Origin: a virus
Lineage: Duplodnaviria > Heunggongvirae > Uroviricota > Caudoviricetes
Direction: 5' to 3' (one strand)
IMG/VR virus record: IMGVR_UViG_3300028666_000001
Span: 1-64,000 of that record
Length of the DNA: 64,000 bases
This document shows, one piece after another, positions 808-40,502 of this stretch (the stretch's first letter is position 1; every line of letters starts with the position of its first letter). Made by a program: the position numbers and the translations under genes. Below the pieces are notes generated by a model. That model was given only the letters and a program-made list of their open reading frames with translations, did not search any database and was not told where the DNA came from.

Positions 808-1289
808 GTCTTACACGAATACAAAAAACTTTTGTAAGATTGGCAGCTCATAAATGGGGCCAAATGAGTAGTTATAGAACTAAAAGATATAGATTAGGTA
901 AATATCAACCTTCTAAAGCTAAAGTTAAAGTTGAGGTAATTGATGCAGTAACAGGTGAGAAAACATTTGGCAAAGCATCCGATGAATCAGCGGCTAAGCT
1001 CCGTAAGTGGCTAAAACTAAGAAATATTCGTGCTGAGTTTACTGATGTACTTCTTAAGAAGAAGTCTACATGGCTCAAATTGAGCGAGATGGAGTTTATC
1101 GACTATCCCGTAATAATTAAAGTAGGTTCCTATAAAGCTCCTTATTTAATTAAGCGTGTCCAGGATCGAGTTACCTATAGGGGTAAGACCACAATTAGTA
1201 TTCAACTGGAGACAACAAATAATATTGATTACTTGGGAATTTTAAGTGCAAAGAAGGAATTATTAGAAAAGAAAAAAGGATCTAAATGA
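804..1289 (+). CDS. hypothetical protein
   Basis: 161 aa ORF, start overlaps upstream stop (ATGA). Confidence 0.4.
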   Translation: MSLTRIQKTFVRLAAHKWGQMSSYRTKRYRLGKYQPSKAKVKVEVIDAVTGEKTFGKASDESAAKLRKWLKLRNIRAEFTDVLLKKKSTWLKLSEMEFIDYPVIIKVGSYKAPYLIKRVQDRVTYRGKTTISIQLETTNNIDYLGILSAKKELLEKKKGSK

Positions 1290-2416
1290 CTCCTGAACAG
1301 TATATAAAAACTCACGATCTGTGGGATCTTGAACGTTTGAAGCAACATGCTCAACATAACAATGTCTATGTGATTCAGTCGGAACGAATCCCCGATGTTG
1401 TCATGCTTCATTACATGGATGCAGTGCAGTATGATAACCTATGGGGCACATTCAATCGTATGTGTCGTGGACTCATTCTTGATATGAAGAATAGAAAGGT
1501 CCTTGCCTATCCCTTTGATAAGTTTTTTAACCTAGGGCAGATGTTAGAGACAAGCTATGATAGTCTCTCTGAGCTTGGTGGATTTGAAACCAGCGAGAAG
1601 CTTGATGGTAGCATGATTATTGGGTTCATTAATCCAAATAATGATAAGCTTACTTTTACCACTAAAGGCTCATTTGACTCTGAGCATGGGGCTTATGCTA
1701 ATACGTTTCCTTTATCTTTCAAACAACAAACAGTACTAAGAGCATTGGCTACTAAGGGAACATTGATGTTTGAGCTAATTGCTAAACCTTTTCAAATTGT
1801 TGTAGATTATAAAAAGAAAGGTTATGCTGAGGGATTGTATCTAATTGGTTTTAGGCATGAAATTTCAGATAAGCTTGCTTCTTTTGCATCTTTGAAGGAG
1901 ATAGCAGAAGAAATAAACTTACCTACTTTCAAGACCTATTCATTTAATGGCTTAGACCAGCTTATTGCTTTGGCAAAGGATCTACCAGTGCTTGAGGAAG
2001 GCTTTGTCCTGCGCTTTCCAGGTGATATTATGGTCAAAGTGAAGGGAAGTGCTTATCTGGCAGCTCATCGGTTTATAAGCCATTTGAGTGATAGGAACAT
2101 TCTACAGGCTGTGGCTGATGGGACAGCTTCAAACTTAGCTACTCTAGCTCCTGAAGAGTATCGGCAGGATGTACTAGATAAGATTACTCACTTCCAGAAA
2201 CGGGTAGCGGAATTAGAGAAGATATGCTATACTTATTATGAGAGATCACCAAAGGAAAGCTCAAGAAAGGACTTTGCTGCTTGGGTACAGGATAGTGTTC
2301 CTCCACATTTTAAAGGATTTTTGTTCCAATTATTAGATGGAAAAGTGGTTGATCGAAAAAGATTTTATAAAGTACTTGAAGAAATTGATAAGATAGATGG
2401 TAAAACGAGAATTTAA
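1286..2416 (+). CDS. rnlA: RNA ligase 1 family (T4 RnlA-like)
   Basis: CRGLILDM..YPFDKFFNLGQ..EKLDGSMIIGF matches T4 Rnl1 ECRGIMFE..PMEKFFNLNE..KEDGSL (motif I KxDG). Confidence 0.85.
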   Translation: MTPEQYIKTHDLWDLERLKQHAQHNNVYVIQSERIPDVVMLHYMDAVQYDNLWGTFNRMCRGLILDMKNRKVLAYPFDKFFNLGQMLETSYDSLSELGGFETSEKLDGSMIIGFINPNNDKLTFTTKGSFDSEHGAYANTFPLSFKQQTVLRALATKGTLMFELIAKPFQIVVDYKKKGYAEGLYLIGFRHEISDKLASFASLKEIAEEINLPTFKTYSFNGLDQLIALAKDLPVLEEGFVLRFPGDIMVKVKGSAYLAAHRFISHLSDRNILQAVADGTASNLATLAPEEYRQDVLDKITHFQKRVAELEKICYTYYERSPKESSRKDFAAWVQDSVPPHFKGFLFQLLDGKVVDRKRFYKVLEEIDKIDGKTRI

Positions 2417-2418: not shown

Positions 2419-2991
2419 ATGCCTTGGAAAGATCCTGAGCAAGCAAAATTGCATAAGAAGGAATATAGAAAACGAACTATAGCTCATATTAAGAAGTATA
2501 GGAAAGAATATCGTTTAAAAAATGGTGAAAAACTTCGTGCTAAAGCAAGGGAATACTACCAAGAACATAAGGATCAAATTATTGCACGAGCAGCTGAATG
2601 GTTAGAAAATAATCGAGAAAGAGCTAATAAATCTATGATAGCTTCTTATGGTAAAAGGTTAAAAGTAGATCCAAAATTGCAATTAAAAAATAGAATTAGA
2701 AGTCGTATTAAAAAAGCGATAAAAGGTAACTATAAAAAAGGTTCTGCATTACAGGAACTTGGGTGTTCTATAGAATTTTTAAAAGACCATATAGCTTCTA
2801 AATTCTATGATGGGATGTCCTGGAGTAATTCTGGTTTGGTATGGGAACTAGATCATATTGTTCCACTAGCTAACTTTGATTTAACTGATCCTGCTCAGTT
2901 TAGAACAGCAGTACACTATACAAACTTGCAACCTTTAACTATTAAAGATCATAGATTAAAAACCAAATTTGAACGAAAAGAGAGGTTATAA
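2419..2991 (+). CDS. HNH-type endonuclease, paralog 1 of 3 (basic N-terminus)
   Basis: WELDHIVPL..HYTNLQPL..K motif; paralogous to 24429 and 52398 genes. Confidence 0.6.
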   Translation: MPWKDPEQAKLHKKEYRKRTIAHIKKYRKEYRLKNGEKLRAKAREYYQEHKDQIIARAAEWLENNRERANKSMIASYGKRLKVDPKLQLKNRIRSRIKKAIKGNYKKGSALQELGCSIEFLKDHIASKFYDGMSWSNSGLVWELDHIVPLANFDLTDPAQFRTAVHYTNLQPLTIKDHRLKTKFERKERL

Positions 2992-4813: not shown

Positions 4814-5275
4814 ATGACATTTGATCCAGATTTAGTTCGAGTTGACCTAATGCTAGTAAAGCGTAAGCTGTATATAAGGCATCCTGAAGGTTCACCAGAA
4901 CGTAAGGCATTTTTGCTTGCTTCTAAACTTTCAGAGCTTACTCATTTACAGAAGCTTGTTGATCCTTTAGTCACGGAAATGATTTTTAATGAATATAATA
5001 GTCAATTAAAAAATGAAGTTATTAATATTATATTGAGTATTGGTCTTGGAGCTTGCTTATCTGTGATGCTGTATGCATACCATCAATTGCATCCTACTAA
5101 TCTTTGGCTATGTTTCTATTTGACTCCAATAATCACAGGAACTTTATTTGCTTCCAGTCATGTATTCCACATGATTGATCGTTGGAAACATTTTCAACCC
5201 TTTAAAGAAGACTATGAAACTCTTTGTAAACAGATTGAGAAACTAACAAATGAAATAAAGGATTTTGCGAAATGA
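4814..5275 (+). CDS. membrane protein
   Basis: two to three predicted TM segments in C-terminal half. Confidence 0.4.
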   Translation: MTFDPDLVRVDLMLVKRKLYIRHPEGSPERKAFLLASKLSELTHLQKLVDPLVTEMIFNEYNSQLKNEVINIILSIGLGACLSVMLYAYHQLHPTNLWLCFYLTPIITGTLFASSHVFHMIDRWKHFQPFKEDYETLCKQIEKLTNEIKDFAK

Positions 5276-6474
5276 GCATTCAAGCATTTCATGATGCTAT
5301 AGTTAATCTGCAGCCAGTGGATCTTTTCCAATATGAGGATGAGATCCCTGAGTTCAAGCTGCTCCATGGCTGTGAACAAAGTCCTGAACATCATGCAGAG
5401 GGAAATGTTCTAATCCATTGTAACATGGCAGGTCAAATAGTTCTTCAGCTTATAGAGGCTGAGAACATTAAAGAAGAATATAAAGTCCTTCTTTATATTG
5501 CCACCATCCTACATGATATTGGTAAACCCTGCACGAGTGTCTTCAATGCAAAGAAAAATAAGATCACTGCATATGGGCATGATGATGCGGGAGTTCCCAT
5601 TGCTAATGAATTTCTTAAGAAGTATTTTCCTGAGTTCCATTATAAGCAGCGTGAATTAGTCTGTAGACTGATTGAACAACACATGCATCCTCGTATGTGG
5701 ATCAAAGATGGTACAGCTACAGTCATAAAGCTAAAGATGCTATCTCTCACTGTGAACACAAAGCTTCTTTATGTTCTATCACAAGCTGATACCCTGGGGC
5801 GAACAGCTAAAGATATGAATGCAAGTATGTCCTTGCTTGAATTGTTTAAACAAAATTGTGAAGACTTAGGCATATGGGATAGACCCTATCGTGTCCCTCT
5901 TGCTACTCATTTGGATAATGCTTCATACTCTCTTGCTAGATGGAATATTCTTATGCATAAGGCCCCAGAAGATTTGGATACTTACGATGCTGCTGTTGAG
6001 ATTATGGTCCAACCTCCTAAACCTAATTTCCAATTGATGGTCTTGATTGGGGCTCCAGGCTCAGGTAAGTCTACAGTTCGTGAACAGTTGGTTGCAAAGT
6101 ATCCTGGTATTAAGGTTATCAGCATGGATGAAAGACGTAAAGAGCTTACGGGTGATGCTAACAATCAGTCACGTAACAATGAAGTGTTTGGTTGGCAGCA
6201 AAAAGAGTTGAGGAAAGCCATGGAAGCGAGACAGAATACTATTGTAGATGCCACAAATACTAGTCGTAAATTGCGTAGAGTTCTTTGGGATATAGCTCGT
6301 GAGAATGGGGCTCTTTGTAGTGCTATCTATTTCGATTTGCCTTTAGCTGTGTTGCTTGAGCGTAATGCATCCAGGGAGAAGAGAGTTCCAGATAGTGTTG
6401 TGGAACGCTTCTATAATACAATGCAATCTGTATGTCCCTGGGAGGCAGACTTAGTTCAAGTTATCGATAAGTAA
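5272..6474 (+). CDS. pnk: HD-domain phosphohydrolase fused to polynucleotide 5'-kinase (Pnk) domain
   Basis: N-term H..HD (ILHDIGKP); C-term VLIGAPGSGKST..DATNTSRKLRRVLWDIARENG aligns with T4 Pnk kinase ILTIGCPGSGKST..SDTNLNPERR. Confidence 0.8.
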   Translation: MSIQAFHDAIVNLQPVDLFQYEDEIPEFKLLHGCEQSPEHHAEGNVLIHCNMAGQIVLQLIEAENIKEEYKVLLYIATILHDIGKPCTSVFNAKKNKITAYGHDDAGVPIANEFLKKYFPEFHYKQRELVCRLIEQHMHPRMWIKDGTATVIKLKMLSLTVNTKLLYVLSQADTLGRTAKDMNASMSLLELFKQNCEDLGIWDRPYRVPLATHLDNASYSLARWNILMHKAPEDLDTYDAAVEIMVQPPKPNFQLMVLIGAPGSGKSTVREQLVAKYPGIKVISMDERRKELTGDANNQSRNNEVFGWQQKELRKAMEARQNTIVDATNTSRKLRRVLWDIARENGALCSAIYFDLPLAVLLERNASREKRVPDSVVERFYNTMQSVCPWEADLVQVIDK

Positions 6475-12889: not shown

Positions 12890-12901
12890 GTATGCTATAC
12901 T
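12873..12901 (+). promoter_or_regulatory. promoter TTGAAA-N17-TATACT, spacer GTAGTAAGTAAGTATGC
   Basis: spacer related to 6660/14292 family. Confidence 0.45.
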
Positions 12902-13726
12902 GAAGTGCAATGGAAACACCGACATATCATAAGACAGCGAAAGAGATTATAGCAAGCGTCGAGGAATGGGTGATTCCTAAGCAATTAGATTTGGACCTTG
13001 ATGTTGTGGTAATCAAGGATGGTAAGCAGCGTTGGGTTGGAGAGCTGCCTTATTGAGGTGTTGCAATGAGAACATGGTGTGTTTCGTATGGGCATGGTGA
13101 TGATCGAGATGTTATTAGAGTCAAAGCAAAAACGGCAAGTGAAGCTGTACATGAAGCTTATATTCGAGTAGGACCTGTAGGTAATGTGTGGCCTGTTCGT
13201 CGAACTAAGAAAGAAATGAAAGGAGAATGAAATGAATCTATTAGCGTTGTCTTTGCTATCACATTTGACTATCTCAGCATTTAAGCCTTTAAATCTATGG
13301 AAAGCGATCACCAATACCCAAACGGTGGAAGCTGTGGTTAAACCAGCTCCTGCGGCTATTGCAGAGGCTTTTGGACGAGCTGCCTGATGCCTAGGGTTAA
13401 TCCTCATGATGCGTTGTGCCCTAGCTGTGGTGAATGCATTTGCATTGACTGTAATGCTAAAGGCTATTGTATCTGTGATGAACTGGAAATGGGTGACTAA
13501 ATGAAACGTAATCTGAAAAGCAATTTAGGTAGTATATGGCATATGATCCTTGGTGCTACCCTGTTCTTCCTTAGCTTCAAGGTTGGGGAAGCTGGGCTGC
13601 TTGGTGGGGCTATGCACTTGGTGGGTTGCGCTTTCTTTTGTACAGGTGTCCATGGGTTGCATGATGCCAGGATGGAAGAAGAGATCCATCCTCACGGTCA
13701 TCATTAAGATTGGGTCTATAGGCCCA

Positions 13727-13755
13727 TTGACTTTAGTAGATAAATATGTTATATT
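13727..13755 (+). promoter_or_regulatory. promoter TTGACT-N17-TATATT, spacer TTAGTAGATAAATATGT
   Basis: spacer related to family motif. Confidence 0.45.
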
Positions 13756-13789
13756 TAATAGAAGTTAATTTTCGATAAGGAGAACTTGA

Positions 13790-14281
13790 ATGTATAGTCC
13801 ATTCAATTCACAAGGAAAGATAAAGCAAAGTAGAGAATTTCGAGAAGTAGAGAACGCTATAAACAATCCAAGGCGTAAACGTTTGCCTAGCTATTACGAT
13901 GCTGCGCCTTTAGAGATTCAAAATGAAAGTCCTAAACGGCGTTATGGGCTTTGCAAAGCAGATCTTAATGAGGGTGACTGGCAGCTCCTCAGCAGTATAT
14001 TGAAGAAGCCTGTTGATGTTTTGCAATATACTTTTGATACAACACCTCGAAGATGGCATGGAAAACTAAAAGAAATCCATGCAGCTTCTAGAGACAAAGG
14101 ACCCTCACCAAAGCAATTAAGGGACGCTTTTAAAGTAGTTGCTATGGGAAAAGGTTGGACAAATGAAAGCAATACATCTAAAAGATTCTTAGAGAAACAA
14201 GGCTATAAAGCACGTCCTATTTTGTCAGCAGCGATATATGTTCCAATAGAGAACACTGTTGAGGAAGATTTGGATTGGTAA
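13790..14281 (+). CDS. hypothetical protein
   Basis: AAGGAGAACTTGAATG RBS; promoter at 13727. Confidence 0.45.
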   Translation: MYSPFNSQGKIKQSREFREVENAINNPRRKRLPSYYDAAPLEIQNESPKRRYGLCKADLNEGDWQLLSSILKKPVDVLQYTFDTTPRRWHGKLKEIHAASRDKGPSPKQLRDAFKVVAMGKGWTNESNTSKRFLEKQGYKARPILSAAIYVPIENTVEEDLDW

Positions 14282-14291
14282 AAGATTTCCC

Positions 14292-14320
14292 TTGACAAGA
14301 GTAGATAAGTATGTTATACT
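14292..14320 (+). promoter_or_regulatory. sigma70-type promoter TTGACA-N17-TATACT, spacer AGAGTAGATAAGTATGT
   Basis: duplicate of 6660 promoter. Confidence 0.6.
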
Positions 14321-14455
14321 TTAGTATGGATAAACAATACAGCGGGATGTCAACAGATAGTCCAGAGTATAAGAAGATCCAGAAGGAAACGCTGGCTAAT
14401 CTGTGGAAAGCTTTTCAGCCAAAGCAGCTTGAGTTAAACCTGGGAGGGAAATAAC

Positions 14456-14806
14456 ATGGCTAATGAATTTCATGATGAAGAGGTTTGTCAGTGTGGTTCA
14501 GTAAGATTCGTAGCGGTCCTGTGCCCTGATCAAAAGAAGTACATTGATATGTGCAAAGACTGTGGTGATTGTGGCTCCCATTTGTGTGATGATATCACCT
14601 GTGATTCCAATGCTGAGTTGGCTCAGCGATTGAAAGATGAAGAAGCTATTGCTGCGGGTGAAGCGAGATACCATGAGTCAGTGCTTAGAGAGGGTGGAGA
14701 CTTGCAGGATGATGTGGATGATTTCGCTGATGCTGAGATTGCTAGAGGCTATGCGAATCCTGATTACTTGGATAGCTCAGATGATTTTGAGGGGGATTTA
14801 CAATGA
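14456..14806 (+). CDS. Cys-rich acidic protein
   Basis: GGGAGG RBS; CQCG..CPD..CKDCGDCGSHLCDDITC. Confidence 0.4.
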   Translation: MANEFHDEEVCQCGSVRFVAVLCPDQKKYIDMCKDCGDCGSHLCDDITCDSNAELAQRLKDEEAIAAGEARYHESVLREGGDLQDDVDDFADAEIARGYANPDYLDSSDDFEGDLQ

Positions 14807-15072
14807 GCGATTATCAACCTAAATATTGGAACAATCGAGGCAGGTATCAAGAGGCTCATGATATCCTGTATAAGCTCCTACAGATTCCTTCGGAGGGTGA
14901 TGCGCCTACAGCTGATGGGCGTAAGCTCTGCAGACTCAACAATCAGTACTACCAGAAGTTTAATAATGGGGTGGGCCGATTGACAGCAGAACAGTTGGAT
15001 CAGCGGGTTGATGCCTTAGTGTGTCACTTGGCTGCTAAGTATCTACGGAAGGTTATTACCAATGCCAAATAA
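14803..15072 (+). CDS. hypothetical protein
   Basis: ATGA-coupled. Confidence 0.35.
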   Translation: MSDYQPKYWNNRGRYQEAHDILYKLLQIPSEGDAPTADGRKLCRLNNQYYQKFNNGVGRLTAEQLDQRVDALVCHLAAKYLRKVITNAK

Positions 15073-18155: not shown

Positions 18156-18302
18156 TGGAATGGCCTCAAGGTAACGTACCAGGGAATTGTTGGTGTGGAC
18201 ATGAAGAACGAGAACATGCTATACTTAACGTGGAAGGCCGTTGCACAAGTTGCCAGTGTGTAGGCTTTATCTTAGACAGGTGGGTGACTAATGAGCTTTG
18301 AT
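18156..18302 (+). CDS. small Zn-knuckle protein lacking the DNLxYLE tail (family relative)
   Basis: read from sequence: CWCGHEEREH..CTSCQCVGF, 48 aa. Confidence 0.35.
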
Positions 18303-18447
18303 CCCTGTGGTACACGAAGACTTGAAGGTAACGATATGCTTAATAGAATAGCTGAGTATCTTGACGTTGATCCAATGGATCTAGCGATTGCTTTAAAGTT
18401 TCAAGCTGAACTAGCTAATGCAGCACGATTAGAAAAGGAGAAGCAAA

Positions 18448-18753
18448 ATGGAAATTAAAGAGCTAGTTGATTATACACAACGTATTAAGCTCCTGCGTAA
18501 TGAACTTGAGTTCATCTCTATTGATTTAATGGAGCGACACGAACAGGATAAGGATAACCAGGATCGTATGGGCTTACCTTTCGATATCAAGGATAGCAAG
18601 TTGGATGATGTAGCTAGTAAGCTTGACTACGGGTTGGCTGATATCAATACGGCTGTGGCTTTACTTGAGATGGTATATAGAAACTCAGTGAGACTTAGGA
18701 AACAGGAAGAGAAAGATAATACACCTAAAGAGAACCAGGGCGAATCTAAATGA
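18448..18753 (+). CDS. hypothetical protein
   Basis: AAGGAG RBS. Confidence 0.4.
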   Translation: MEIKELVDYTQRIKLLRNELEFISIDLMERHEQDKDNQDRMGLPFDIKDSKLDDVASKLDYGLADINTAVALLEMVYRNSVRLRKQEEKDNTPKENQGESK

Positions 18754-24428: not shown

Positions 24429-25025
24429 ATGAGTAAAGTATGTGTTGGATGCAAAAAAGATAATACTCAGATCCAATTTGGTTCAGATAAACGAACTTTA
24501 TCTGGTTTAAGATCTCGTTGTAATGAATGTCGTAAAACAGAATCATCTCCAGAAGATGTGAAAGCTCGTGGACAACGTTGGTATATTAAAAATAGAAGTA
24601 AAGTATTGAAAAATGTTCAGGCTTATAAAAAGGCTCATATAGATTGGTGGAGAAAATACACTAATAATTATGATAAAATTAATGCTAAAGAAAGTATTAT
24701 TTATAAAATTAAACGAAATCTTCGTGCTCGTTTACGTGCAGCATTAAAACATAATTTAAAACAAGGATCAGCAGTTCAAGAGCTTGGTTGTTCAGTAGAT
24801 TATTTTAGGAAGTATTTAGAATCTAAATTCTATGGAAATATGTCATGGGATACTTATGGGCTTGGAAAAGATAAATGGCAAATAGATCATATTGTTCCTA
24901 TTAAGAGTTTTGATTTTACAAATAAAGAACAATTTAAAAAAGCTGTTCATTATACTAATCTTCAACCTTTATGGTATATTGATCATGTACTTAAAACCAA
25001 AGAAGATAGGAGGAGTTATAAATGA
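24429..25025 (+). CDS. HNH-type endonuclease, paralog 2 of 3
   Basis: CVGCKK..CNECR zinc site, basic region, WQIDHIVPIKSFDF..HYTNLQPLW. Confidence 0.6.
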   Translation: MSKVCVGCKKDNTQIQFGSDKRTLSGLRSRCNECRKTESSPEDVKARGQRWYIKNRSKVLKNVQAYKKAHIDWWRKYTNNYDKINAKESIIYKIKRNLRARLRAALKHNLKQGSAVQELGCSVDYFRKYLESKFYGNMSWDTYGLGKDKWQIDHIVPIKSFDFTNKEQFKKAVHYTNLQPLWYIDHVLKTKEDRRSYK

Positions 25026-25555
25026 GAGTGATGATGTTGGATTTTGATGGAGTATTGAACAGTAAGCAGCACTTCCTTGCTACCAAAGGCTTTAAGGTTC
25101 CAGGAGCTGATACGCTTAATGATGCAGATTTGTTTCGCATGAAGTCTGATGTCAATGCTAATAACATGTGGGTATTACGCTTTATCATGGATCAAGTACC
25201 AGACCTGAAGATTGTTATCTCCTCAGCTTGGAGAAGCTTCTATAGCCTTGAATCCTTTAAAGAGCTATTCAAGATCTATAAGCTAGATGGTGACAGGATC
25301 ATTGGAGTAACACCAAAGAAATTCAGCTCTGAGCGTATCCATGAGATTCACATGTGGTTGGATGACTATGTAGAACTTCACCACAAGCAGCCAGATTGGG
25401 TTGCCTTGGACGATCATGCTATCTTTAACCTAGGAGATCCAGAGAAGGTTAGAGAGTTCCTAACAGACAGCTGGGTGGGTTTAACGATGCAGGATGCTTT
25501 TAAAATTGTTCAGCACTTTCATCCTGAGTATCAACCTCCTGTGATACTGATATGA
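25022..25555 (+). CDS. HAD-superfamily phosphatase-like protein
   Basis: motif I MLDFDGVL, motif II VISSAW, motif IV ALDDH. Confidence 0.5.
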   Translation: MRVMMLDFDGVLNSKQHFLATKGFKVPGADTLNDADLFRMKSDVNANNMWVLRFIMDQVPDLKIVISSAWRSFYSLESFKELFKIYKLDGDRIIGVTPKKFSSERIHEIHMWLDDYVELHHKQPDWVALDDHAIFNLGDPEKVREFLTDSWVGLTMQDAFKIVQHFHPEYQPPVILI

Positions 25556-25882: not shown

Positions 25883-26440
25883 ATGAGATACTTTACAAGC
25901 GATACACACTTTGGTCATGGGAACATTATTAAGTACTGCACACGTCCATTTAAAGATGCAGGTGAGATGGATCGTGCTATCATTGCTAATTGGAATGAAA
26001 CGGTGCAGCCTGATGATATTGTCTACCATCTTGGGGATGTAGCCTTTACTTCACCAGATAGAGCGAAACATATCCTTAGTTGCCTGAATGGGCATAAGAT
26101 ACTGATCCTGGGAAACCATGATAGGTCAGGTCATAAGATGGCAGAGTGGGGCTTTGCTGAAGTGTACCAGTCCAAACAGATTGAGCTGGAAGGTGGTATA
26201 ATCGCTAACCTTTCTCACTATCCATATCGTGGTGATAAGAATGATCCTTATCATAAAGTAAAGTTTGACACTAAGAATCTAGATGATGATGGGCGGCTAC
26301 TTATCTGTGGTCACGTTCATACTGCTTGGAAATCTATTCCAGGTAAGTATAAGAATCATATGATCAATGTGGGTCAGGATCAATGGGCCTTTAGACCTAT
26401 ATCTGAGACTCAGCTTCTAGAGTATCTAAAAACACTTTAA
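25883..26440 (+). CDS. calcineurin-like metallophosphoesterase
   Basis: SDTHFGH, GDVAF (GD), ILGNHD, GHVH motifs. Confidence 0.75.
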   Translation: MRYFTSDTHFGHGNIIKYCTRPFKDAGEMDRAIIANWNETVQPDDIVYHLGDVAFTSPDRAKHILSCLNGHKILILGNHDRSGHKMAEWGFAEVYQSKQIELEGGIIANLSHYPYRGDKNDPYHKVKFDTKNLDDDGRLLICGHVHTAWKSIPGKYKNHMINVGQDQWAFRPISETQLLEYLKTL

Positions 26441-29979: not shown

Positions 29980-30122
29980 TAATCACTTTGGTTTGTGAGT
30001 GTGATCATCCTAACTGGATGCATACCTATGATATGTGGTGTAACTTCTGTCGTTGCAATATCTTTAAGGTTGACAATCTCAAGTCTTTAGAGTACACTTA
30101 TGGATCTACTGTATCCTTGTAA
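29976..30122 (+). CDS. DNLxYLE-tail family member (48 aa, not in track)
   Basis: read from sequence: CECDHPNWMH..CNFCRC..VDNLKSLEYT. Confidence 0.45.
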   Translation: MIITLVCECDHPNWMHTYDMWCNFCRCNIFKVDNLKSLEYTYGSTVSL

Positions 30123-30282
30123 GACGTGTGGACATGCCTACGAAGATCATCTCGTAGGATTAAGCTGTGCCTTTTGCTGGGCAGATGCAGGGTTTAATAG
30201 ATCATCTGTTATCCATAATATGTGTAAAAGGTTCATAGGGGATAACCTGAAGTACTTAGAGGAGAAACATGCTGAGTCCTGA
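30100..30282 (+). CDS. DNLxYLE-tail small Zn-knuckle protein
   Basis: CKTCGHAYEDH..CAFC; tail DNLKYLEEK. Confidence 0.65.
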   Translation: MDLLYPCKTCGHAYEDHLVGLSCAFCWADAGFNRSSVIHNMCKRFIGDNLKYLEEKHAES

Positions 30283-30490
30283 TTACCTTTGTACCTGTGG
30301 TCATAGAAACAAAATGCATGTATCTCTTGCAGATGCAAAGAAGTACCGTAATCATGAGGGCAGAATGTGCATTGCGTATAAAGATGCTATCTCTGTAGCT
30401 GAGGTTGTTTATCATAATAAAGAAGAGATCTGCAGCTGCAATGATTTTGTAGGAGATAACCTTAAGACATTGGAGAATTTGAGTGTCTGA
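30269..30490 (+). CDS. DNLxYLE-tail small Zn-knuckle protein
   Basis: CTCGHRNKMH..CSC; tail DNLKTLENL. Confidence 0.6.
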   Translation: MLSPDYLCTCGHRNKMHVSLADAKKYRNHEGRMCIAYKDAISVAEVVYHNKEEICSCNDFVGDNLKTLENLSV

Positions 30491-30713
30491 GTATTATCAT
30501 TATCCAAAAGTCAGGGGTGATGAGTATTGCCGTTTCTGTAAGCATCAAGCTTTCTTCCATATGACTACCCAGAATTTTGGTGCTCCTAATATGTCAGCAG
30601 TATGGAAGCAATGTGACTTTGCAGCTAGAAAGTGTTCCTGTCCAGGCTTTGGTGCAATAGATAACCTTCTATACTTGGAGATGTGTGCCGATGACAAACG
30701 TAGTTCATTGTAA
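30483..30713 (+). CDS. DNLxYLE-tail small Zn-knuckle protein
   Basis: CRFCKH..H..CSC; tail DNLLYLEMC. Confidence 0.6.
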   Translation: MSEYYHYPKVRGDEYCRFCKHQAFFHMTTQNFGAPNMSAVWKQCDFAARKCSCPGFGAIDNLLYLEMCADDKRSSL

Positions 30714-30951
30714 ATCAGGTAGACCATACGATATCTATATAGGTCGTCCATCTATGTGGGGTAATCCATATCAGATTGGTATTGATGGAACTAGAGAAGA
30801 AGTGATAGAGAAGTTTGAAGCATTCTATTTAATGGATGGTTGGATGCAAGCTCATATAGGTGAGTTGAAGGATAAAACTTTAGGATGTTGGTGTAAACCT
30901 CTAGCATGTCACGGAGATATACTAGTCAAGTACGCAGAGGCAAATAGCTAA
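30685..30951 (+). CDS. conserved hypothetical (CWCxP..CHGD motif protein)
   Basis: GCWCKPLACHGDIL C-terminal signature. Confidence 0.35.
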   Translation: MPMTNVVHCKSGRPYDIYIGRPSMWGNPYQIGIDGTREEVIEKFEAFYLMDGWMQAHIGELKDKTLGCWCKPLACHGDILVKYAEANS

Positions 30952-31052
30952 CAATACTGTTGTTAAAGTGCTTATCTATATTACTTATTAGTATATATTA
31001 TAGATCAGATACAGATGTCTCCTTTAACAACATTTACAAAAGGATCTTTAAC

Positions 31053-31622
31053 ATGGCACAAAGTAGAAAAGAATACCAGCGTGATTATAGAAAGAAACAT
31101 CCTCGTACAAAATATTTTAGTGATCTGTATCAAGAGCAGAAAAAAGAACGCTTGACTTATCAGCGCAATTATGATATAATTAATAAAGAGGCTATTGTGA
31201 GTAAACGTAGAGCACTGACCATGCATCAACATATTACAGGGGTTTCTAAATGTACCACTAAGTGGGCCATTAAGTGGAAGGTTGCCTATGAATCTTTTGC
31301 TAAACTTTTGGGTTGGTCCTATAATGATCCTGTCTATGTTCAGCTTTATAATACCTGGAGAGATTCAGGATATGAACCTCTTCTACGTCCCGTTGTAATG
31401 CGTGGTATAAAGAAAAATGGATTTGTCCAAGAGAATTTGCATTGGGATATTAGAAAGAACTTTTCTTGGTGGAATGAGGATGCTCAGATCTATGCTGAGG
31501 TAGAGAAAGAGACAGAAGACTTTCAACGAGAGCATAATCAACGTAGTAAAGAATGGCGTAAGAAGGTTAGACAAGATTTGAAAGCTAAACAAAAAGAGGC
31601 TAAGAAACGTCATGTCTATTAG
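31053..31622 (+). CDS. basic (K/R-rich) putative nucleic-acid-binding protein
   Basis: AAAAGGA RBS; QRDYRKKHPRTKYF N-terminus similar to basic N-termini of the HNH paralogs. Confidence 0.4.
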   Translation: MAQSRKEYQRDYRKKHPRTKYFSDLYQEQKKERLTYQRNYDIINKEAIVSKRRALTMHQHITGVSKCTTKWAIKWKVAYESFAKLLGWSYNDPVYVQLYNTWRDSGYEPLLRPVVMRGIKKNGFVQENLHWDIRKNFSWWNEDAQIYAEVEKETEDFQREHNQRSKEWRKKVRQDLKAKQKEAKKRHVY

Positions 31623-33048: not shown

Positions 33049-33299
33049 ACGCTGCTTGGGGTTGGGACCCAGAAGTAATTAAGAAGTATTTTGAAGGGCC
33101 AAAGATCAAATACAAATATGTTATTACAGATGATAAGGATGAGTTCCTTGCTTCAATGAATAGGATTGCTGAGAAACACTTTGCCGAGACTAAAGACAAT
33201 CTCAGGTATCTAGAGCACTTGGATAGGATTAAAGCAATAGAAGAAGGTGCTGAGCTGCGTGATGTGTTTACTTGGCTAAAGGATTTTGATGATAAATAA
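33045..33299 (+). CDS. DNLxYLE-motif protein (no Zn knuckle)
   Basis: DNLRYLEHL internal. Confidence 0.5.
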   Translation: MNAAWGWDPEVIKKYFEGPKIKYKYVITDDKDEFLASMNRIAEKHFAETKDNLRYLEHLDRIKAIEEGAELRDVFTWLKDFDDK

Positions 33300-33498
33300 A
33301 GATTTCCCATGCAAGACTTGTCATCATGCAGCTGATAAGCATTACTCTAATATATCAGATGGTGAGACTATTTGTGTAAATTGTGTTGATCAACGTATAT
33401 CATATGATGGTGAGCAGTTCCATGAGTTCATTGGTGATAATTTAAAATATATGGAACTTCTAAATAGAAGGGAGCAGATTAAAAATGAGCAAATGTAA
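33286..33498 (+). CDS. DNLxYLE-tail small Zn-knuckle protein
   Basis: CKTCHHAADKH..CVNC; tail DNLKYMELL. Confidence 0.6.
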   Translation: MMINKDFPCKTCHHAADKHYSNISDGETICVNCVDQRISYDGEQFHEFIGDNLKYMELLNRREQIKNEQM

Positions 33499-33787
33499 TG
33501 GATGATCTTGTTTGGGGAACCATTAAATATAAAGGTCCACCTCTTCAATATGAGTGGTTTCATTTTTGTTCTGATGGCACATTGATTTGGAATTGTCTAT
33601 GGTCTAATTGTGAGAACTGTAAAAAACTAGAGGAATATTACAATGAGCAAGCCTAAAGTAAAAGATCGCTCAGGCTTTAGCCATGATTGCCCATTCTGTG
33701 GGTATCACATTGTAGTCTGTTGTTCCCCTGAGTATTTGAAATGTATCTATTGCTGTAGACGTTGGAAATTAGAAAAGGATGAGAACA

Positions 33788-34504
33788 ATGAGCAAACCCC
33801 AGAAAGATAGTCTTGGTGATAGGATGAAAGGGTATGAAAACGTCACTAGGACGTTTTTAACTGGTAGGATGCCTTGTATCATTAGGATTGATGGAAAAGC
33901 CTTCCACACCTTAACTAAGGGCCTTAAGAAGCCATTTGATAAGGACTTTGCAGATGCTATGTTAGCTACAACCAGAGATCTATGTGATGAGATTCAGGGA
34001 GCTGCTTTAGCCTATTGGCAATCAGATGAGATATCGATTCTTTTAATTGATTATTTAAGGTTAACTTCTCAGTCATGGTTTGATAAGAATATTCAGAAGA
34101 TGGTATCAGTTAGTGCCAGCATTGCGACAGCTAGTTTCAATAGTTGGTTCCAATTCCCCGATACCTGCAACTCAAGAGCTACTTTTGATAGTAGGGTCTT
34201 TACTTTACCTAGAGAAGAGGTTTGTAACTATTTTTTATGGAGACAACAAGATGCTACTAGAAATAGTATCAATTCTGTTGGTCAAGCTTATTTCTCCCAT
34301 AAGCAATTACATGGTAAAAATACAGATCAAGTTCAAGATATGCTTTTTAAAGAGAAAGGGATCAATTGGAACGATCTACCAGTTATTGAGAAAAGGGGTG
34401 CTTGTATAGTGAAGCAGGAAGGTGGTTGGATAGTAGACAGAGAAATCCCTATCTTTAGTCAAGATAGAGAATATGTAAATAAGTTTGTTAATATAGGAGA
34501 TTAA
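33788..34504 (+). CDS. Thg1-like protein (tRNA-His guanylyltransferase family, 3'-5' polymerase; tRNA 5'-end repair)
   Basis: CIIRIDGKAFHTL / KPFDKDFADAM / YWQSDEISILL / FLWRQQDA align with Thg1 VVVRLDGRNFHRF / KPNDSRALQLM / YGQSDEYSFVF / YLSWRQADC. Confidence 0.85.
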   Translation: MSKPQKDSLGDRMKGYENVTRTFLTGRMPCIIRIDGKAFHTLTKGLKKPFDKDFADAMLATTRDLCDEIQGAALAYWQSDEISILLIDYLRLTSQSWFDKNIQKMVSVSASIATASFNSWFQFPDTCNSRATFDSRVFTLPREEVCNYFLWRQQDATRNSINSVGQAYFSHKQLHGKNTDQVQDMLFKEKGINWNDLPVIEKRGACIVKQEGGWIVDREIPIFSQDREYVNKFVNIGD

Positions 34505-34642
34505 AAATGATTACATTGAAGTTTATATTTAGACCAGATTGGATGTGTAGACCACATTTTAATATTTGCAAACGTCATATATCAATTGACCTTGGAATTA
34601 TTGACCTGTCAATTCAATGGAGGGAATAGCTAATATTAGGAC

Positions 34643-34671
34643 TTGACAGACTAAGCTTTAGGGGGTATACT
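34643..34671 (+). promoter_or_regulatory. sigma70-type promoter TTGACA-N17-TATACT (leaderless ATG 34678, HNH gene)
   Basis: exact hexamers. Confidence 0.5.
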
Positions 34672-34677
34672 ATTATT

Positions 34678-35148
34678 ATGAAGTCTAAAGCAAAAGAATT
34701 ATACGATAAACAGTATTATCAAAGAACTAAAGAGCAACGTAAACAGCATAGAGATTTACATCGTGCTGAGCATCTTATTTATGATAAAGAGCGATATGTT
34801 AGATTGAAGAATGAGTTTGCTAAAAGAGCTAGAACATTAGAGGTTCGTTTTAAATCGGGAGTTTCAAAAGCTAAGAAGATGAAGCGAGAATGGCAAATAT
34901 CTTTTGTTGAATATAAGCAATTAATTAAATTGGGTTGCTATTATTGTGGTGTGGACTTGACAGATACAGCAGGAACAAATTTGGATAGGGTAGATAATAA
35001 GAAAGGCTATACACTGAATAATGTTTTACCTGCATGTGGCCCCTGTAATGAAAGTAGATTTGATCATTTCACAGTGCCAGAGTGGGTTGCTATGATTCGA
35101 GCTTTGCAGGTCTATAGACATAACAAGGAGAATGGCTATGTCCGTTGA
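34678..35148 (+). CDS. HNH homing-endonuclease-like protein
   Basis: CYYCGVDL..NLDRVDNKKGYTLNNVLPACGPCNESR canonical HNH. Confidence 0.65.
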   Translation: MKSKAKELYDKQYYQRTKEQRKQHRDLHRAEHLIYDKERYVRLKNEFAKRARTLEVRFKSGVSKAKKMKREWQISFVEYKQLIKLGCYYCGVDLTDTAGTNLDRVDNKKGYTLNNVLPACGPCNESRFDHFTVPEWVAMIRALQVYRHNKENGYVR

Positions 35149-36178
35149 AAGAAAGTTAGCATCAATTCAAAAAGTCTTAGATGTCCAGCCTATTCCTGGG
35201 GCTGATGCTATTGAATGTCTTACTGTTCTTGGTTGGAAGGTTGTTAGCAAGAAAGGTGAATTCAAGGTTGGAGACTTGGTTGTTTACTTTGAAGTTGATT
35301 CGATTCTCAAAGAATCTCCTGATGTTGAGTTCCTGCGTAAGTCAGGCTTTCGTATCAAAACGATACGATTACGAGGTCAAGTTAGTCAGGGTCTTTGTTT
35401 GCCACTATCCATCTTGGCAGGTGAGTCTGAGTTGCCACATGAGCCACATGCTGAGGGTGATGATGTCACTGAGCTGCTTGGAGTAGTTAAGTATGAACCA
35501 TATGTGCCAGCTCAGTTGGCTGGTCTTGCCAAAGGTAACTTCCCAGAGTTCTTGCATAAGACAGATGAGACTCGTATCCAGGCTGTGCCAGCAGTATTAT
35601 ACAGACACCAAAACAAAAAGTTTTATGTGACAGAGAAGGTTGACGGGTCCAGCATGACTGTCTATTTCAGACGCAATGAGCACTTCGCTGATGGAGAGTT
35701 TGGCGTTTGCTCTCGTAATATAGATATGAAAGAAGAAGGTGGTACATCGTTCTGGAAAGTAGCTAGAGAGCTTGACCTTGAGAACAAGCTGCGTAGCCTT
35801 AATCGTAACATTGCGCTGCAGGGTGAGTTGCTTGGTCCAGGTGTCCAGGGCAATAAGTATAAGCTAGAGAAACTTGGCTACTATGTGTTCAACGTTTTTG
35901 ATATTGATACTGGTCTTCATTTTAATTATGATGACTTTGTTAAGATGATAATTTATTTGCAATTGCAGCCTGTTCCTTTGGTTGATGATTCATTTATATT
36001 ACCTAACACTATAGATGAATTGGTCCAATACTCTAAAGGTAAGAGTGCAATGAATAAAGATTCTCATCGTGAGGGTATTGTGTTGCGTCCTTTGATTGGT
36101 GAGTATGATGAAGATCTGCGTGGTCGCTTAAGTTTCAAGTGCATTAACCCAGATTTCCTGTTAAAATATGATGCGTGA
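35138..36178 (+). CDS. ATP-dependent RNA ligase (Rnl2/Rnl5 superfamily) with N-terminal tRNA-binding-type OB domain
   Basis: motif I TEKVDGSS, motif IV REGIVLRPL, motif V LSFKCINPDF; N-term IPGADAIECLTVLG..GDLVVYFEVDSIL resembles Myf/EMAP-II tRNA-binding fold. Confidence 0.75.
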   Translation: MSVERKLASIQKVLDVQPIPGADAIECLTVLGWKVVSKKGEFKVGDLVVYFEVDSILKESPDVEFLRKSGFRIKTIRLRGQVSQGLCLPLSILAGESELPHEPHAEGDDVTELLGVVKYEPYVPAQLAGLAKGNFPEFLHKTDETRIQAVPAVLYRHQNKKFYVTEKVDGSSMTVYFRRNEHFADGEFGVCSRNIDMKEEGGTSFWKVARELDLENKLRSLNRNIALQGELLGPGVQGNKYKLEKLGYYVFNVFDIDTGLHFNYDDFVKMIIYLQLQPVPLVDDSFILPNTIDELVQYSKGKSAMNKDSHREGIVLRPLIGEYDEDLRGRLSFKCINPDFLLKYDA

Positions 36179-36353
36179 TGAAGTTGATTGCAGGTGTGGT
36201 CATTTAGAAGATATGCATATATTGGACATAGAAGGGCAACTTGATGGGACATATTGTTCAAATTGTTACATGTTTGGCTTTGAATGTTCTGAATATAGAA
36301 TGGACTCTTTAAAATTGTTGGAGTATAGATATGAGCAAAAAGAAAAGTTGTAA
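36168..36353 (+). CDS. DNLxYLE-tail small Zn-knuckle protein
   Basis: CRCGHLEDMH..CSNC; tail DSLKLLEYR. Confidence 0.55.
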   Translation: MMRDEVDCRCGHLEDMHILDIEGQLDGTYCSNCYMFGFECSEYRMDSLKLLEYRYEQKEKL

Positions 36354-36992: not shown

Positions 36993-37170
36993 GTTTATTT
37001 GGTGGAGATAAGACACCTGAAGTAGAAAAGCCTGATATTTGGGAAGAGGTTGGAGAGGATACAGATATCTATCGTACACGTACTCCTGAAGGTTGGTTAA
37101 TTATGGATAATCAATATCATAGAGGCGGGTTAACATATGTGCCAGATGCAGATCATAAATGGAGGCTAGG

Positions 37171-37821
37171 ATGAACATAATTCCCACAGTCATAGAAAAG
37201 AATCCAGGTGCAGGTAGCATGGTGTCGTATGATCTGTTGTCACGTCTCATGCAGGATAGGATCTTGTTTGTTGGTGGTAATCATGGAGCTATCAGCCTTG
37301 ATGATGCTAACATTCTAATTGCCCAGCTTCTGTATCTGGAGTCTATTGATCCAGGCAAGCTGATTCAGATGTATATCAATTCTCCAGGTGGAGAAGTTTC
37401 CGCTGGATTGGCTATTCTTGATACAATGCGCCACATTACAAGTCCAATTCAAACTATCTGCATGGGTATGGCTATGAGCTTTGGAGCTGTGCTGCTTAGC
37501 TCAGGAGCTAAAGGCAAACGTTTTGCATTGCCTAATGCTCGTATCATGATCCATCAACCATTGATCAGCGGTGGTGGCATATCTGGTCAGGCTACAGATA
37601 TTGCTATTGAAGCTAAAGAAATGGTTCATTGCAAAGAGTCTCTTACTAAAATCATGGCTAAAAACTGTGGTCAAGAATATGAGAAGGTACTTGCTGATTG
37701 TGAACGCAATTTCTACATGTCAGCCGAGGAAGCAAAAGCGTATGGTTTGATTGATTCGGTTATTTACCCAGCAGAAGAAGGTAAGTCAAAGACCAAAGGT
37801 TATTGGGACGACGGTAAATAA
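37171..37821 (+). CDS. clpP: ClpP-family serine peptidase (S14), copy 1
   Basis: INSPGGEV, GMAMSFGAVLLSSGAKGKRFALPNARIMIHQP closely parallels E. coli ClpP [32 protein letters not shown]; GGAGG RBS. Confidence 0.8.
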   Translation: MNIIPTVIEKNPGAGSMVSYDLLSRLMQDRILFVGGNHGAISLDDANILIAQLLYLESIDPGKLIQMYINSPGGEVSAGLAILDTMRHITSPIQTICMGMAMSFGAVLLSSGAKGKRFALPNARIMIHQPLISGGGISGQATDIAIEAKEMVHCKESLTKIMAKNCGQEYEKVLADCERNFYMSAEEAKAYGLIDSVIYPAEEGKSKTKGYWDDGK

Positions 37822-38125: not shown

Positions 38126-38592
38126 ATTTGTGAGTGGATTAAATGAGTGACATGAGGTTCCAATTGGATCATATATAATCCAAGATGCCTACACTTCTCA
38201 CAAAGCCCTTTAAAGGAGATGCAAATGAAAATAATTATTGTTACAACCGTTGTTATTTTTTGGTATGCAGTAGCTGTTTGGTTAACCTATAAGATTGCTC
38301 AGTGGTTTGAGCGTAACTCATAAGGAGAGTAGAATGCAATTAGAATGTGAAACGTTTCTATTAGCTGCAGGTAGTACATACAATGAAGTAGTTAAAAGAT
38401 CAGGTCGTTTACGGATTTCTACAAGTGGAGCAATTAAGGCTTGTTCAGTTATTGGAATAACTGAAGGATTTCCTCTATTTATAAATGAATCCACTAATTA
38501 TTTAGATGTAAAAAAAGGAAGTATACTTCGTATTATAAATAGAGATGTGAGTGTTAATGTTTATTTAAGTTATGAGGGGAAAGGAAAATAAT

Positions 38593-38829
38593 ATGGCTGA
38601 TGAAATTCAATTAGAAGGTGTAGTGAGCAGCAATATATCTGCAATCGGTTTTGAAGCAAAGTCAGGAACCATGCAGGTGAAGTTCAACAATGGTGGATTG
38701 TATGAAACAGTTGGTGCTTCCCAGGCCGATTATGATACCTTCAAACTTGCTAAGAGCAAAGGTGTTCACTTCAATAAGGTTTTGAAGAGAGCATTTGCTT
38801 GGAGTAAAGTAGAGAAGAAAGGAGTATAA
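38593..38829 (+). CDS. KTSC-domain-like protein
   Basis: ISAIGFEAKSGTMQVKFNNGGLYETVGASQADYDTFKLAKSKGVHFNKVLKR resembles the KTSC domain. Confidence 0.4.
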   Translation: MADEIQLEGVVSSNISAIGFEAKSGTMQVKFNNGGLYETVGASQADYDTFKLAKSKGVHFNKVLKRAFAWSKVEKKGV

Positions 38830-38951: not shown

Positions 38952-39134
38952 ATGGAGTCGTTTGTTTGTAGAACCTGTGGTCATATTCTTGGTCATGGCT
39001 TGAATTTTGCAGAGACAGGTAGATATGATTCTGTATGTCATTGTGGTTGCACTGATTGGATTCCATCAGGTAATTTACAGTATTTGGAATGGTGTTTGGA
39101 TCATAAGGTGAATAATGTACAACAGTCGTTGTAG
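38952..39134 (+). CDS. DNLxYLE-tail small Zn-knuckle protein
   Basis: CRTCGHILGH..CHCGC; tail GNLQYLEWC. Confidence 0.6.
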   Translation: MESFVCRTCGHILGHGLNFAETGRYDSVCHCGCTDWIPSGNLQYLEWCLDHKVNNVQQSL

Positions 39135-39306
39135 GAATTGCTTTTGTCTTCATTTTAATAAAGACACGAGCTTAAATTACCCAGAGAAATGTTATTGTCC
39201 AGAAGCATTTAAAGCCATACTAAGATGTATCAATTATGTGCCAAAAGAGAACTTAGAGTATTTAGAATGGGTACTAGAACATGAAACGAAATTGGAAAGT
39301 AGATAA
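39115..39306 (+). CDS. DNLxYLE-tail small Zn-knuckle protein
   Basis: CRNCFCLH..CYC; tail ENLEYLEWV. Confidence 0.6.
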   Translation: MYNSRCRNCFCLHFNKDTSLNYPEKCYCPEAFKAILRCINYVPKENLEYLEWVLEHETKLESR

Positions 39307-40130: not shown

Positions 40131-40502
40131 GTGAAACTCTACGTAGACGATCTTAGGATTTGTCCAGAGGGTTGGACATTAGCCCGTACAAACACAGAAG
40201 CTATTAGACTTTTAGCTACTGGATATGTTACAGAGATATCTATAGATCATGATATTTGTGTGCCTAATGCTCATCTTATAAATCAGACTGTCCGTAAACG
40301 TCTTGCCATTGGAGAAGAGACATATCAGCCTGTGGCTTATTATATTGCTGCTATGCCAAAGCCCAATCTGATTAAAGTAAATTTCCATACAGCTAATCCA
40401 GAGGGAGCAGCAAAGATGAAGAGTATCCTTGATGCAGTAGGTATTGAATCTACCTATACCCCAGGCAGTTATCTTATTGACTTAGGAGATACAGAGATAT
40501 GA
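40131..40502 (+). CDS. hypothetical protein (GTG start per track)
   Basis: 123 aa ORF. Confidence 0.35.
   Translation: MKLYVDDLRICPEGWTLARTNTEAIRLLATGYVTEISIDHDICVPNAHLINQTVRKRLAIGEETYQPVAYYIAAMPKPNLIKVNFHTANPEGAAKMKSILDAVGIESTYTPGSYLIDLGDTEI

Follow-up and report, generated by a model that had tools for sequence, protein, structure and literature searches.

A recurrent pairing of genes for a Thg1-like protein and an Rnl5 RNA ligase in a tailed phage, probably split by insertion of a PacI-type nuclease gene

Why should a phage carry, side by side, genes for an enzyme that extends RNA in the 3'-to-5' direction, a nuclease and an RNA ligase? The question is raised by positions 1-64,000 of the IMG/VR record IMGVR_UViG_3300028666_000001 (Caudoviricetes), a stretch that we call the window and on whose numbering all coordinates are given. 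Across 33779-36178 the window holds three plus-strand open reading frames (ORFs), which encode a Thg1-like protein (TLP), a PacI-type His-Me finger nuclease and an Rnl5 RNA ligase (Table 1); the longest minus-strand ORF in this interval is at most 133 amino acids (aa). Judged by sequence, each of the three proteins falls clearly within a known family. We consider it likely that TLP and Rnl5 form a conserved unit, split here by the insertion of a PacI-type homing endonuclease gene, and that the two serve to mend RNAs which nucleases of the host have cut. Other loci compared with the window, whether viral, genomic or on contigs of relatives, are referred to by L-numbers (L065, L088, L252 and so on).

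The first ORF exceeds the curated cut-offs of both Pfam profiles of the Thg1 family, with Thg1 (PF04446) matching at 2.8e-29 (102.1 bits against a cut-off of 29.2) and Thg1C at 1.8e-6 (28.6 bits against 26.3). PHROG 4717, annotated as tRNA-His guanylyltransferase, matches at 2e-95. A sequence-only reading of this DNA had based a Thg1-like assignment on the blocks IRIDGKAFH, KPFD, QSDEISILL and WRQQDA, and all four are present in the translation of this ORF. Translation probably starts at Met4 (33788), giving a protein of 238 aa, and public gene callers use the same start (P0001 on record).

The closest solved structure is BtTLP from Bacillus thuringiensis (4kgk; 1.3e-79, 58% identity over 229 aligned residues), while the match to an archaeal TLP (1.2e-15) and those to yeast, human and Candida Thg1 (1.9e-13 to 1e-11) are weaker. 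The phage protein and BtTLP (PDB 4KGK/4KGM) are of the same length and have the same two-domain layout and catalytic residues. The active-site carboxylates TLP-D38, TLP-D83 and TLP-E84 correspond to D30, D75 and E76 of BtTLP, and the activation lysine TLP-K51 corresponds to K43; E20, R24, R36, S82, K107, R139 and R155 are also kept. In fact, every one of the BtTLP residues E12, R16, R28, D30, K43, S74, D75, E76, K99, R131 and R147 is preserved in the phage protein, the catalytic residues having been named for BtTLP by Hyde et al. (PMC3701042). Because the ORF is far nearer to BtTLP than to eukaryotic Thg1 or archaeal TLP, and because all of the named residues are conserved, we assign it to the bacterial-type, repair-type TLPs rather than to the eukaryotic, tRNA-His-specific Thg1 enzymes. 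Bacterial-type TLPs favour template-dependent repair of 5'-truncated tRNAs over G-1 addition (PMC3061083), and repair of 5'-truncated tRNAs by TLPs has been reported (PMC3061083, PMC3701042). The window TLP differs from BtTLP, apart from being assigned from sequence, in that it is phage-encoded and adjoins an Rnl5 ligase.

The third ORF is matched above cut-off by Pfam RNA_ligase (PF09414; 7.4e-25, residues 163-337 of 348) and by TIGR02306, the NCBIfam equivalog for the DRB0094 ligase of Deinococcus (residues 9-345; score 198.6 bits, with 151.15 as the cut-off). Pfam PHA02142 OB (PF21189; 1.6e-32, residues 9-92) and the NgrRnl structure (6.9e-66) match it as well. Translation probably begins with the ATG at 35138 and yields 346 aa, the form found in the public record P0122. 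The protein has an N-terminal OB domain and a C-terminal nucleotidyltransferase (NTase) domain and is without a C-terminal module. The ligase motifs I, IV and V that had been read from the letters, KVDGSS (169-174), EGIVLRP (314-320) and KCINPDF (336-342), are correctly placed by the NgrRnl alignment (K169=K170, E314=E312, K336=K326), and the lysine of motif I is present in a careful alignment. Nine of nine ATP and metal ligands of the active site are conserved: Rnl5-R7, D56, K120, R148, K169, D171, E232, E314 and K336 correspond to R4, D53, K121, R149, K170, D172, E227, E312 and K326 of NgrRnl, the last correspondence coming straight from the SFK motif. We therefore assign this ORF specifically to the Rnl5 family, whose members seal 3'-OH(RNA)/5'-PO4 nicks in duplexes (PMC4408790, PMC5397189). 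The OB-NTase layout and the nine ligands are shared with NgrRnl (Naegleria gruberi, PDB 5COT) and DraRnl (Deinococcus radiodurans); the phage ligase differs from both in an insertion of about eight residues (YDEDLRGR) between motifs IV and V, in being phage-borne and, in the window lineage, in having its start codon within the inserted nuclease gene.

The N-terminal domain of Rnl5 had also been likened to the Myf/EMAP-II tRNA-binding OB fold. Compared with solved structures, a model of this domain finds NgrRnl first and then the tRNA-binding OB domains of Trbp111, CsaA, EMAP-II and PheRS-beta, while PF01588 (tRNA_bind) gives no match to the Rnl5 sequence at E <= 0.1. The likeness thus holds for the modelled fold and fails for the sequence profile: the domain is predicted to have a tRNA-binding-type OB fold, related to tRNA_bind at the level of the fold only. 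Its characterised job, established in NgrRnl, is to bind the ATP gamma-phosphate and a metal ion during adenylylation, a reaction that requires the domain (PMC7261155), and this is what sets it apart from the tRNA-binding OB domains of similar fold (Trbp111, CsaA, EMAP-II, MetRS-C and PheRS-beta B2).

TLP and Rnl5 recur together well beyond the window, in many divergent lineages of phages and of metagenome-assembled genomes (MAGs). We compared 80 TLP-centred viral loci from IMG/VR, 80 Rnl5-centred viral loci and 80 TLP loci from genomes in GTDB, counting as neighbours genes within 10 kb. Rnl5 neighbours TLP at 21 of the 80 viral TLP loci and at 7/80 genome loci, and TLP neighbours Rnl5 at 8/80 viral Rnl5 loci, against a chance expectation of about 0.1-0.25 loci per 80 (from 165 TLP and 354 Rnl5 places in the 2.3 Gb of INPHARED), which is a rough estimate, as densities from one database are applied to loci from others and the loci lack independence. 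Within the clade of the window, 18 of 21 TLP homologues (at least 60% identity, contigs of at least 19 kb) are paired with Rnl5 on a contig of identical size. The order TLP, Rnl5, ClpP is kept in L088, L169, L170, L171, L252 and L253, and inspection of these six loci and of L087 reveals a longer conserved order, TLP-Rnl5-ClpP-KTSC-cREC-RNase H.

The pair is adjacent, with gaps of 23-936 bp and often of only 23-130 bp, in seven lineages, namely the window clade and those of L121, L132, L192, L204, L217 and L065. Across these lineages TLP identity is mostly at or below 54% (L204 against L217 is about 62%) and Rnl5 identity does not exceed 42%. Both gene orders occur, and the two genes lie on the same strand in 20 of 20 tabulated pairs. 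Since adjacency persists across divergent lineages, in both orders and on one strand, we conclude that TLP and Rnl5 constitute a functionally linked neighbourhood and not only inherited synteny. TLP and Rnl5 are a conserved unit, and the nuclease lies outside it.

Two of these loci carry further genes of some interest. In L087, whose TLP is 72% identical to that of the window, a gene for an RF-1-domain protein directly follows TLP, and Macro and PTH2 (peptidyl-tRNA hydrolase) genes are also present (10720-11097, 14542-14997, 18219-18524 for the set); together these could rescue translation. In the gut-phage lineage of L121, where Rnl5 and TLP are adjacent in that order, the gene for a DUF2828/DUF7788 protein comes before the pair and seems to be divided between two ORFs that overlap; after the pair come two unannotated ORFs, of 301 and 219 aa, and a PP2C-like phosphatase (8220-9780 and 12126-14395 for these flanking genes).

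What, then, might the pair do? A role in repairing tRNAs or other RNAs against host nucleases is plausible, and its steps can be sketched from the biochemistry of the families concerned. Host RNases would leave 2',3'-cyclic-PO4/5'-OH ends or take out nucleotides. The HD-Pnk, the HAD phosphatase, the metallophosphoesterase and the cREC protein of the window could heal such ends, and Rnl1 could seal breaks in loops. TLP would activate a 5'-monophosphate RNA end with ATP and add nucleotides 3'-to-5' against the 3' strand of a helix, thereby restoring a truncated tRNA acceptor stem. Rnl5 would adenylylate itself on Rnl5-K169, pass the AMP to a 5'-PO4 and seal the 3'-OH(RNA)/5'-PO4 nick of a duplex. 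In concert with HD-Pnk, Rnl1, HAD, metallophosphoesterase and cREC, the pair would in this way repair tRNAs or other structured RNAs cut during infection. The sequence-only reading had counted two ligases, one kinase-phosphoesterase and one polymerase for 5' ends, and profiles prove this correct, with the Rnl1 and HD-Pnk genes at the places given in Table 1. The kinase domain of HD-Pnk is related to CthPnkp (5.8e-13) and to T4 Pnk (1.7e-9). A metallophosphoesterase homologue neighbours TLP at 29/80 viral and 14/80 genome loci and, in the main viral group, follows TLP at a distance of about 600 bp, and the cREC_REC gene is kept downstream of Rnl5 in relatives; linkage of cREC to RNA ligases has been described (PMC7824862).

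The tight linkage suggests that TLP and Rnl5 may act in sequence on one substrate, with reverse gap filling followed by sealing. In its strongest form, which we put forward tentatively and regard as rather unlikely, this would be a dedicated pathway of reverse gap filling and sealing for double-stranded RNA segments: (I) a host nuclease would remove part of the 5' strand in a helical segment, such as a tRNA acceptor stem; (II) TLP would rebuild that strand 3'-to-5' on the opposite one until it abuts the upstream 3'-OH; and (III) Rnl5, docked via its tRNA-binding-type OB domain, would seal the last nick. We note that the product end of TLP is a 5'-triphosphate and would have to be trimmed before a classical ligase could act on it. 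If such a pathway did exist, it would be the RNA counterpart of DNA excision repair and would give both enzyme families their first physiological function in bacteria.

Several points weigh against a role of the pair in RNA repair. In the tRNA and Rfam scans of the window, neither a tRNA gene nor any recognisable target of a host nuclease was found. What Rnl5 and bacterial TLPs do physiologically is described as uncharted (PMC5397189), the established role of the Rnl5 N-domain is adenylylation and not tRNA binding, and we found no literature report of Rnl5 acting on tRNA or of its N-domain binding tRNA. The promoter-like site between TLP and the ligase, described below, suggests that the two genes may lie on separate transcripts. 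With DnaC/IstB-like, RNase H and ThyX genes nearby, nothing compels us to read the whole region as one for RNA repair. Finally, the loci that were counted are not phylogenetically independent, and co-occurrence is inflated because large phages are richer in accessory genes of every sort.

Two alternatives for the individual enzymes have to be weighed against RNA repair by the pair. TLP might serve tRNA maturation, by adding G-1 to a tRNA-His of the phage or of its host, or by 5'-editing phage tRNAs whose acceptor stems have mismatches, in the manner of Dictyostelium TLP2/TLP3 in mitochondria, with the ligase unrelated to it in function. Enzymes of the BtTLP type can add G-1 opposite C73, TLP3 does carry out tRNA 5'-editing (PMC6471195), and most phage databases label TLP genes as tRNA-His guanylyltransferase. 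The window itself holds no tRNA gene; it covers only 64 kb of a 192-kb genome, and a phage tRNA-His may lie elsewhere, yet at none of the 33 loci examined does a tRNA-His lie within 10 kb of TLP. The repeated same-strand adjacency to the ligase and the frequent linkage to phosphoesterase and Pnk fit repair better than maturation, and we consider maturation improbable.

Equally improbable, in our view, is that Rnl5 works in phage nucleic-acid metabolism, for instance on RNA-3'-OH/DNA-5'-PO4 junctions in replication or recombination, and adjoins TLP because both sit in a shared early or middle accessory region. The family's biochemistry would allow it: for DraRnl and NgrRnl only the 3'-OH side has to be RNA, and DNA will do for both the 5'-PO4 strand and the template, and deletion of Deinococcus rnl slows genome reassembly after irradiation (PMC5397189). 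The surroundings would suit it too, with the DnaC/IstB-like ATPase, RNase H and ThyX of the window, the dCMP deaminase of relatives, and a DnaB-like helicase and a primase-type zinc ribbon in L087. However, adjacency to TLP persists where the surrounding genes differ wholly and the order is inverted, which is unexpected from synteny by descent alone, and Rnl5 also co-occurs with Rnl1, HD-Pnk and metallophosphoesterase.

With RNA repair by the TLP-Rnl5 unit as the preferred reading, the ORF that separates the two genes remains to be placed. The encoded protein begins with a long helix, has a zinc site of the Cys4 type and contains the motif LDRVDNKKGY...N...CGPCN. Neither Pfam nor NCBIfam has a family that matches this 156-aa ORF, and its PHROG matches are modest (endonuclease VII, 1.2e-10; HNH, 1.2e-9). 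By an exhaustive HMMER search, the family to which it belongs is very large: 11,977 representatives are found at E <= 1e-3. In an alignment of 35 members, C87, Y89, D103, R104, G110, Y111, N115, P118, C120, N124 and E135 are invariant and C90, C119 and C123 are at least 90% conserved; the position of the general-base His of classical HNH enzymes holds Arg. PF01844 (HNH) touches only two of the 35 relatives (E = 0.003).

A profile built from the family hits the restriction enzyme PacI at 2.2e-7, and LDRVDNKKGY...N115...N124 aligns with VDRSDSFEGY...N...CN of PacI. The structure model has the beta-beta-alpha-metal core and the Cys4 zinc site, an omega-loop Tyr replaces the general-base His, and the Asp and Asn metal ligands are present. 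PacI defines group 20 of the His-Me finger nucleases, in which a loop Tyr replaces His and whose members are mostly viral (PMC5714182, PMC4081073); PacI-type proteins were without a Pfam family in the 2017 His-Me classification. We therefore assign the middle ORF to the PacI-type His-Me nucleases, which refines the earlier label of HNH endonuclease. Identity to PacI itself (PDB 3LDY/3M7K) is 19%, with the Tyr-for-His active site in both. In contrast to PacI, the window nuclease has a long basic N-terminal helix, a phage setting and a polymorphic intergenic site, and these differences suggest homing rather than restriction. Paralogy with the ORF at 30960-31622 or with the Endonuclease_7 genes of L171 was considered and rejected, as no significant similarity to either was found.

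The sequence-only reading had counted the nuclease in the repair island; comparison with relatives argues instead for a mobile insertion. The site is empty in L252, a contig from the same study with a ligase 80% identical to that of the window: its TLP stop lies 39 bp upstream of the ligase ATG. At the same spot, L169, L253 and L254 have a small ORF and a dCMP deaminase, L088 has a deaminase and two small ORFs, L170 has a 135-aa ORF, and L171 has SprT, a deaminase and a classical Endonuclease_7 gene. The PacI-type family profile finds one copy in the window and only two more, at unrelated positions, among about 170 loci. Because the site is empty in L252 and holds other cargo in other relatives, we conclude that the nuclease is probably a lineage-specific insertion, a free-standing homing endonuclease gene whose function is probably to spread itself and not to repair RNA.

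The empty site also points to what was interrupted. The 39-bp spacer of L252 is approximately a promoter alone (TTGACA-17-TATACT-7-ATG), and the corresponding promoter-like site of the window ends 6 nt upstream of the nuclease ATG. Such sites recur here: the pattern TTGAC[AT]-N16-18-TA[TC]A[ACT]T has 13 copies on the plus strand of the window, including those at 4659, 6660, 7354, 8162, 14292, 19859, 26629, 28974 and 34643, and none on the minus strand, and in six of the 13 an ATG follows 5-6 nt past the -10 element. With this strand bias and six close start codons, the site before the nuclease is not a chance match, and the six copies suggest leaderless or near-leaderless mRNAs. At the other end of the nuclease ORF, AAGGAG lies in its last codons and is followed by the ligase start (35138 ATG), and homology of the ligase to its relatives picks up again at E/D-R-K-L-A-S-I. 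Taken together, the promoter ahead of the nuclease, the AAGGAG at its end and the resumed ligase homology place the nuclease ORF between the promoter and the coding sequence of the ligase. The inserted gene is predicted to provide the Shine-Dalgarno sequence and the start codon of the ligase, by which ligase expression would be kept.

A further ORF of 40 aa and doubtful reality precedes the nuclease and ends in a TAG (34627-34629) that is in frame with it. A database protein of 213 aa, P0121, fuses the two and reads the TAG as Gln; it comes from a 2.4-kb contig (L168, 374-1015). Recoding of TAG as Gln was rejected, since the source contig carries the same TAG and the large genes of the window are intact under code 11, and P0121 is a gene-calling artefact on a short contig. 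In the window TAG terminates 8 of 82 ORFs, read-through would give only short extensions, and TAG reads as an ordinary stop with no sign of recoding.

That the nuclease should instead be a working partner of the ligase, as proposed for HNH-Rnl2 fusions in which the nuclease attacks competing DNA while the ligase repairs RNA, is very unlikely: the nuclease does overlap the ligase start and share the ligase promoter, a different His-Me nuclease (Endonuclease_7) overlaps Rnl5 at the same position in L171, a canonical HNH ORF follows the Rnl1 gene of the window and HNH-ligase fusions are reported (PMC7824862), but the site is empty in L252 and filled with non-nuclease cargo in L088, L169, L170 and L253, the nuclease family is found beside Rnl5 at none of 80 Rnl5 loci, and the 17 kb of L171 hold four scattered Endonuclease_7 genes, as is typical of mobile nucleases.

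Table 1. Features of the window discussed in the text, in order of position
Feature	Coordinates	Strand	Size, basis or remark
Rnl1-type RNA ligase	1286..2416	+	Pfam RNA_lig_T4_1 3.8e-19; PHROG 562 6e-54
Canonical HNH ORF (WELDHIVPL...N...H)	2419..2991	+	190 aa; PHROG endonuclease VII 4.8e-7
HD phosphoesterase + P-loop polynucleotide kinase (HD-Pnk-like)	5272..6474	+	Pfam HD 2.6e-9, AAA_33 3.2e-27
HAD_SAK_2 phosphatase ('Swiss Army Knife' RNA-repair HAD family)	25022..25555	+	Pfam PF18143 1.8e-19
Metallophosphoesterase	25883..26440	+	Pfam Metallophos_2 5.2e-8; PHROG 547 1.2e-49
DUF4326	30685-30951		Conserved in relatives
TLP, 3'-5' template-dependent RNA polymerase family	33779..34504	+	241-aa ORF; Pfam, PHROG and BtTLP matches
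40-aa ORF, doubtful reality	34507..34629	+	No family match; sequence absent from empty-site relative
Sigma-70-type promoter-like site (TTGACA-17-TATACT)	34643..34671	+	11/12 consensus matches; regional best
PacI-type His-Me finger (HNH) nuclease	34678..35148	+	156 aa; family profile, alignment, structure model
Rnl5 (DraRnl/NgrRnl) nick-sealing RNA ligase	35132..36178	+	348-aa ORF; Pfam, TIGR02306, NgrRnl
Rnl5 N-terminal OB domain	35132..35512	+	Residues 1-127; structure model
ClpP	37159-37821		Phage gene near the three ORFs
KTSC domain	38572-38829		Conserved in relatives
cREC_REC (cyclic-phosphate-processing receiver) protein	40131..40502	+	Pfam PF20274 8.4e-19

The remaining contents of the window place the locus in its setting. 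As the HNH ORF directly follows the Rnl1 gene, each of the two ligase genes adjoins a His-Me nuclease gene. The DUF4326, KTSC and cREC_REC genes lie on either side of the island. YopX, RNase H, ThyX and a DnaC/IstB-like protein are also encoded. The guanine-cytosine (GC) skew is positive over the entire window, consistent with a single coding strand. The tRNA scan found no tRNA gene in the 64 kb and the Rfam scan no match. Phage records contain no DNA near-identical to the window, and the phage is known only from metagenome contigs, chiefly ENA ERZ27245386 (192,099 bp), together with a JGI sample. An identical TLP is found on this 192,099-bp contig and on shorter contigs from five other samples, where the gene order is unchanged as far as the contigs extend. 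Some related contigs have been binned with MAGs of Bacteroidota.

We also observed a tail motif, D-N-L-x-Y-L-E ([DNG][NS]Lx[YFLTAS][LM]E), with 34 matches on the plus strand and none on the minus strand. It lies nearly always 3-16 residues before the stop of small ORFs of 45-150 aa, many of them Cys-rich and zinc-ribbon-like (e.g., 30100-30282, 30269-30490, 33286-33498, 36168-36353 and 39115-39306, and 8152-8403 and 11052-11261 in L088). These small proteins are a large paralogous family that is present in relatives too; the ClpP gene lies in the same region as the ORFs with this tail. At E <= 0.01, Pfam yields nothing for three very large ORFs at 53392-56193 (933 aa), 56246-58858 (870 aa) and 59275-62811 (1178 aa).

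Much of this repertoire is known from other phages. The logic of healing and then sealing tRNA breaks inflicted by the host is shared with the T4 Pnkp and Rnl1 pathway, and Rnl1, the kinase-phosphoesterase, the HAD phosphatase and cREC are likewise found in the repair sets of jumbo phages (PMC7824862). What the window adds to these is a 3'-5' polymerase and a duplex-nick ligase, Thg1 being only sporadic in jumbo phages. In 2010 Anantharaman et al. had already connected Thg1 with genes for PNK, Macro and RNA ligase and had recorded a Thg1 in a phage (PMC2904730), and in 2021 Iyer et al. included Thg1, found sporadically and restoring 5' ends, in the RNA-repair genes of jumbo phages (PMC7824862). 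A 2019 review of TLPs mentions neither phages nor ligases. To call the toolkit of the window unusually complete, as the sequence-only reading did, was therefore an overstatement. The specific pairing of TLP with Rnl5 was not found in the literature covered, although Burroughs & Aravind 2016 may already describe it. We regard the recurrent pairing, together with the clean empty-site evidence for the nuclease insertion, as modest additions.

The biochemistry of bacterial-type TLPs and of Rnl5 is well worked out, and the pair gives the question of what they do in nature a concrete setting: which host nuclease causes the damage, and do TLP and Rnl5 act in sequence? If they do, phages would possess a templated repair of RNA helices that is distinct from the healing and sealing of anticodon loops by T4. 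The locus is, in addition, a clean natural example of a homing nuclease lodged between a promoter and its gene, with expression of that gene predicted to be kept.

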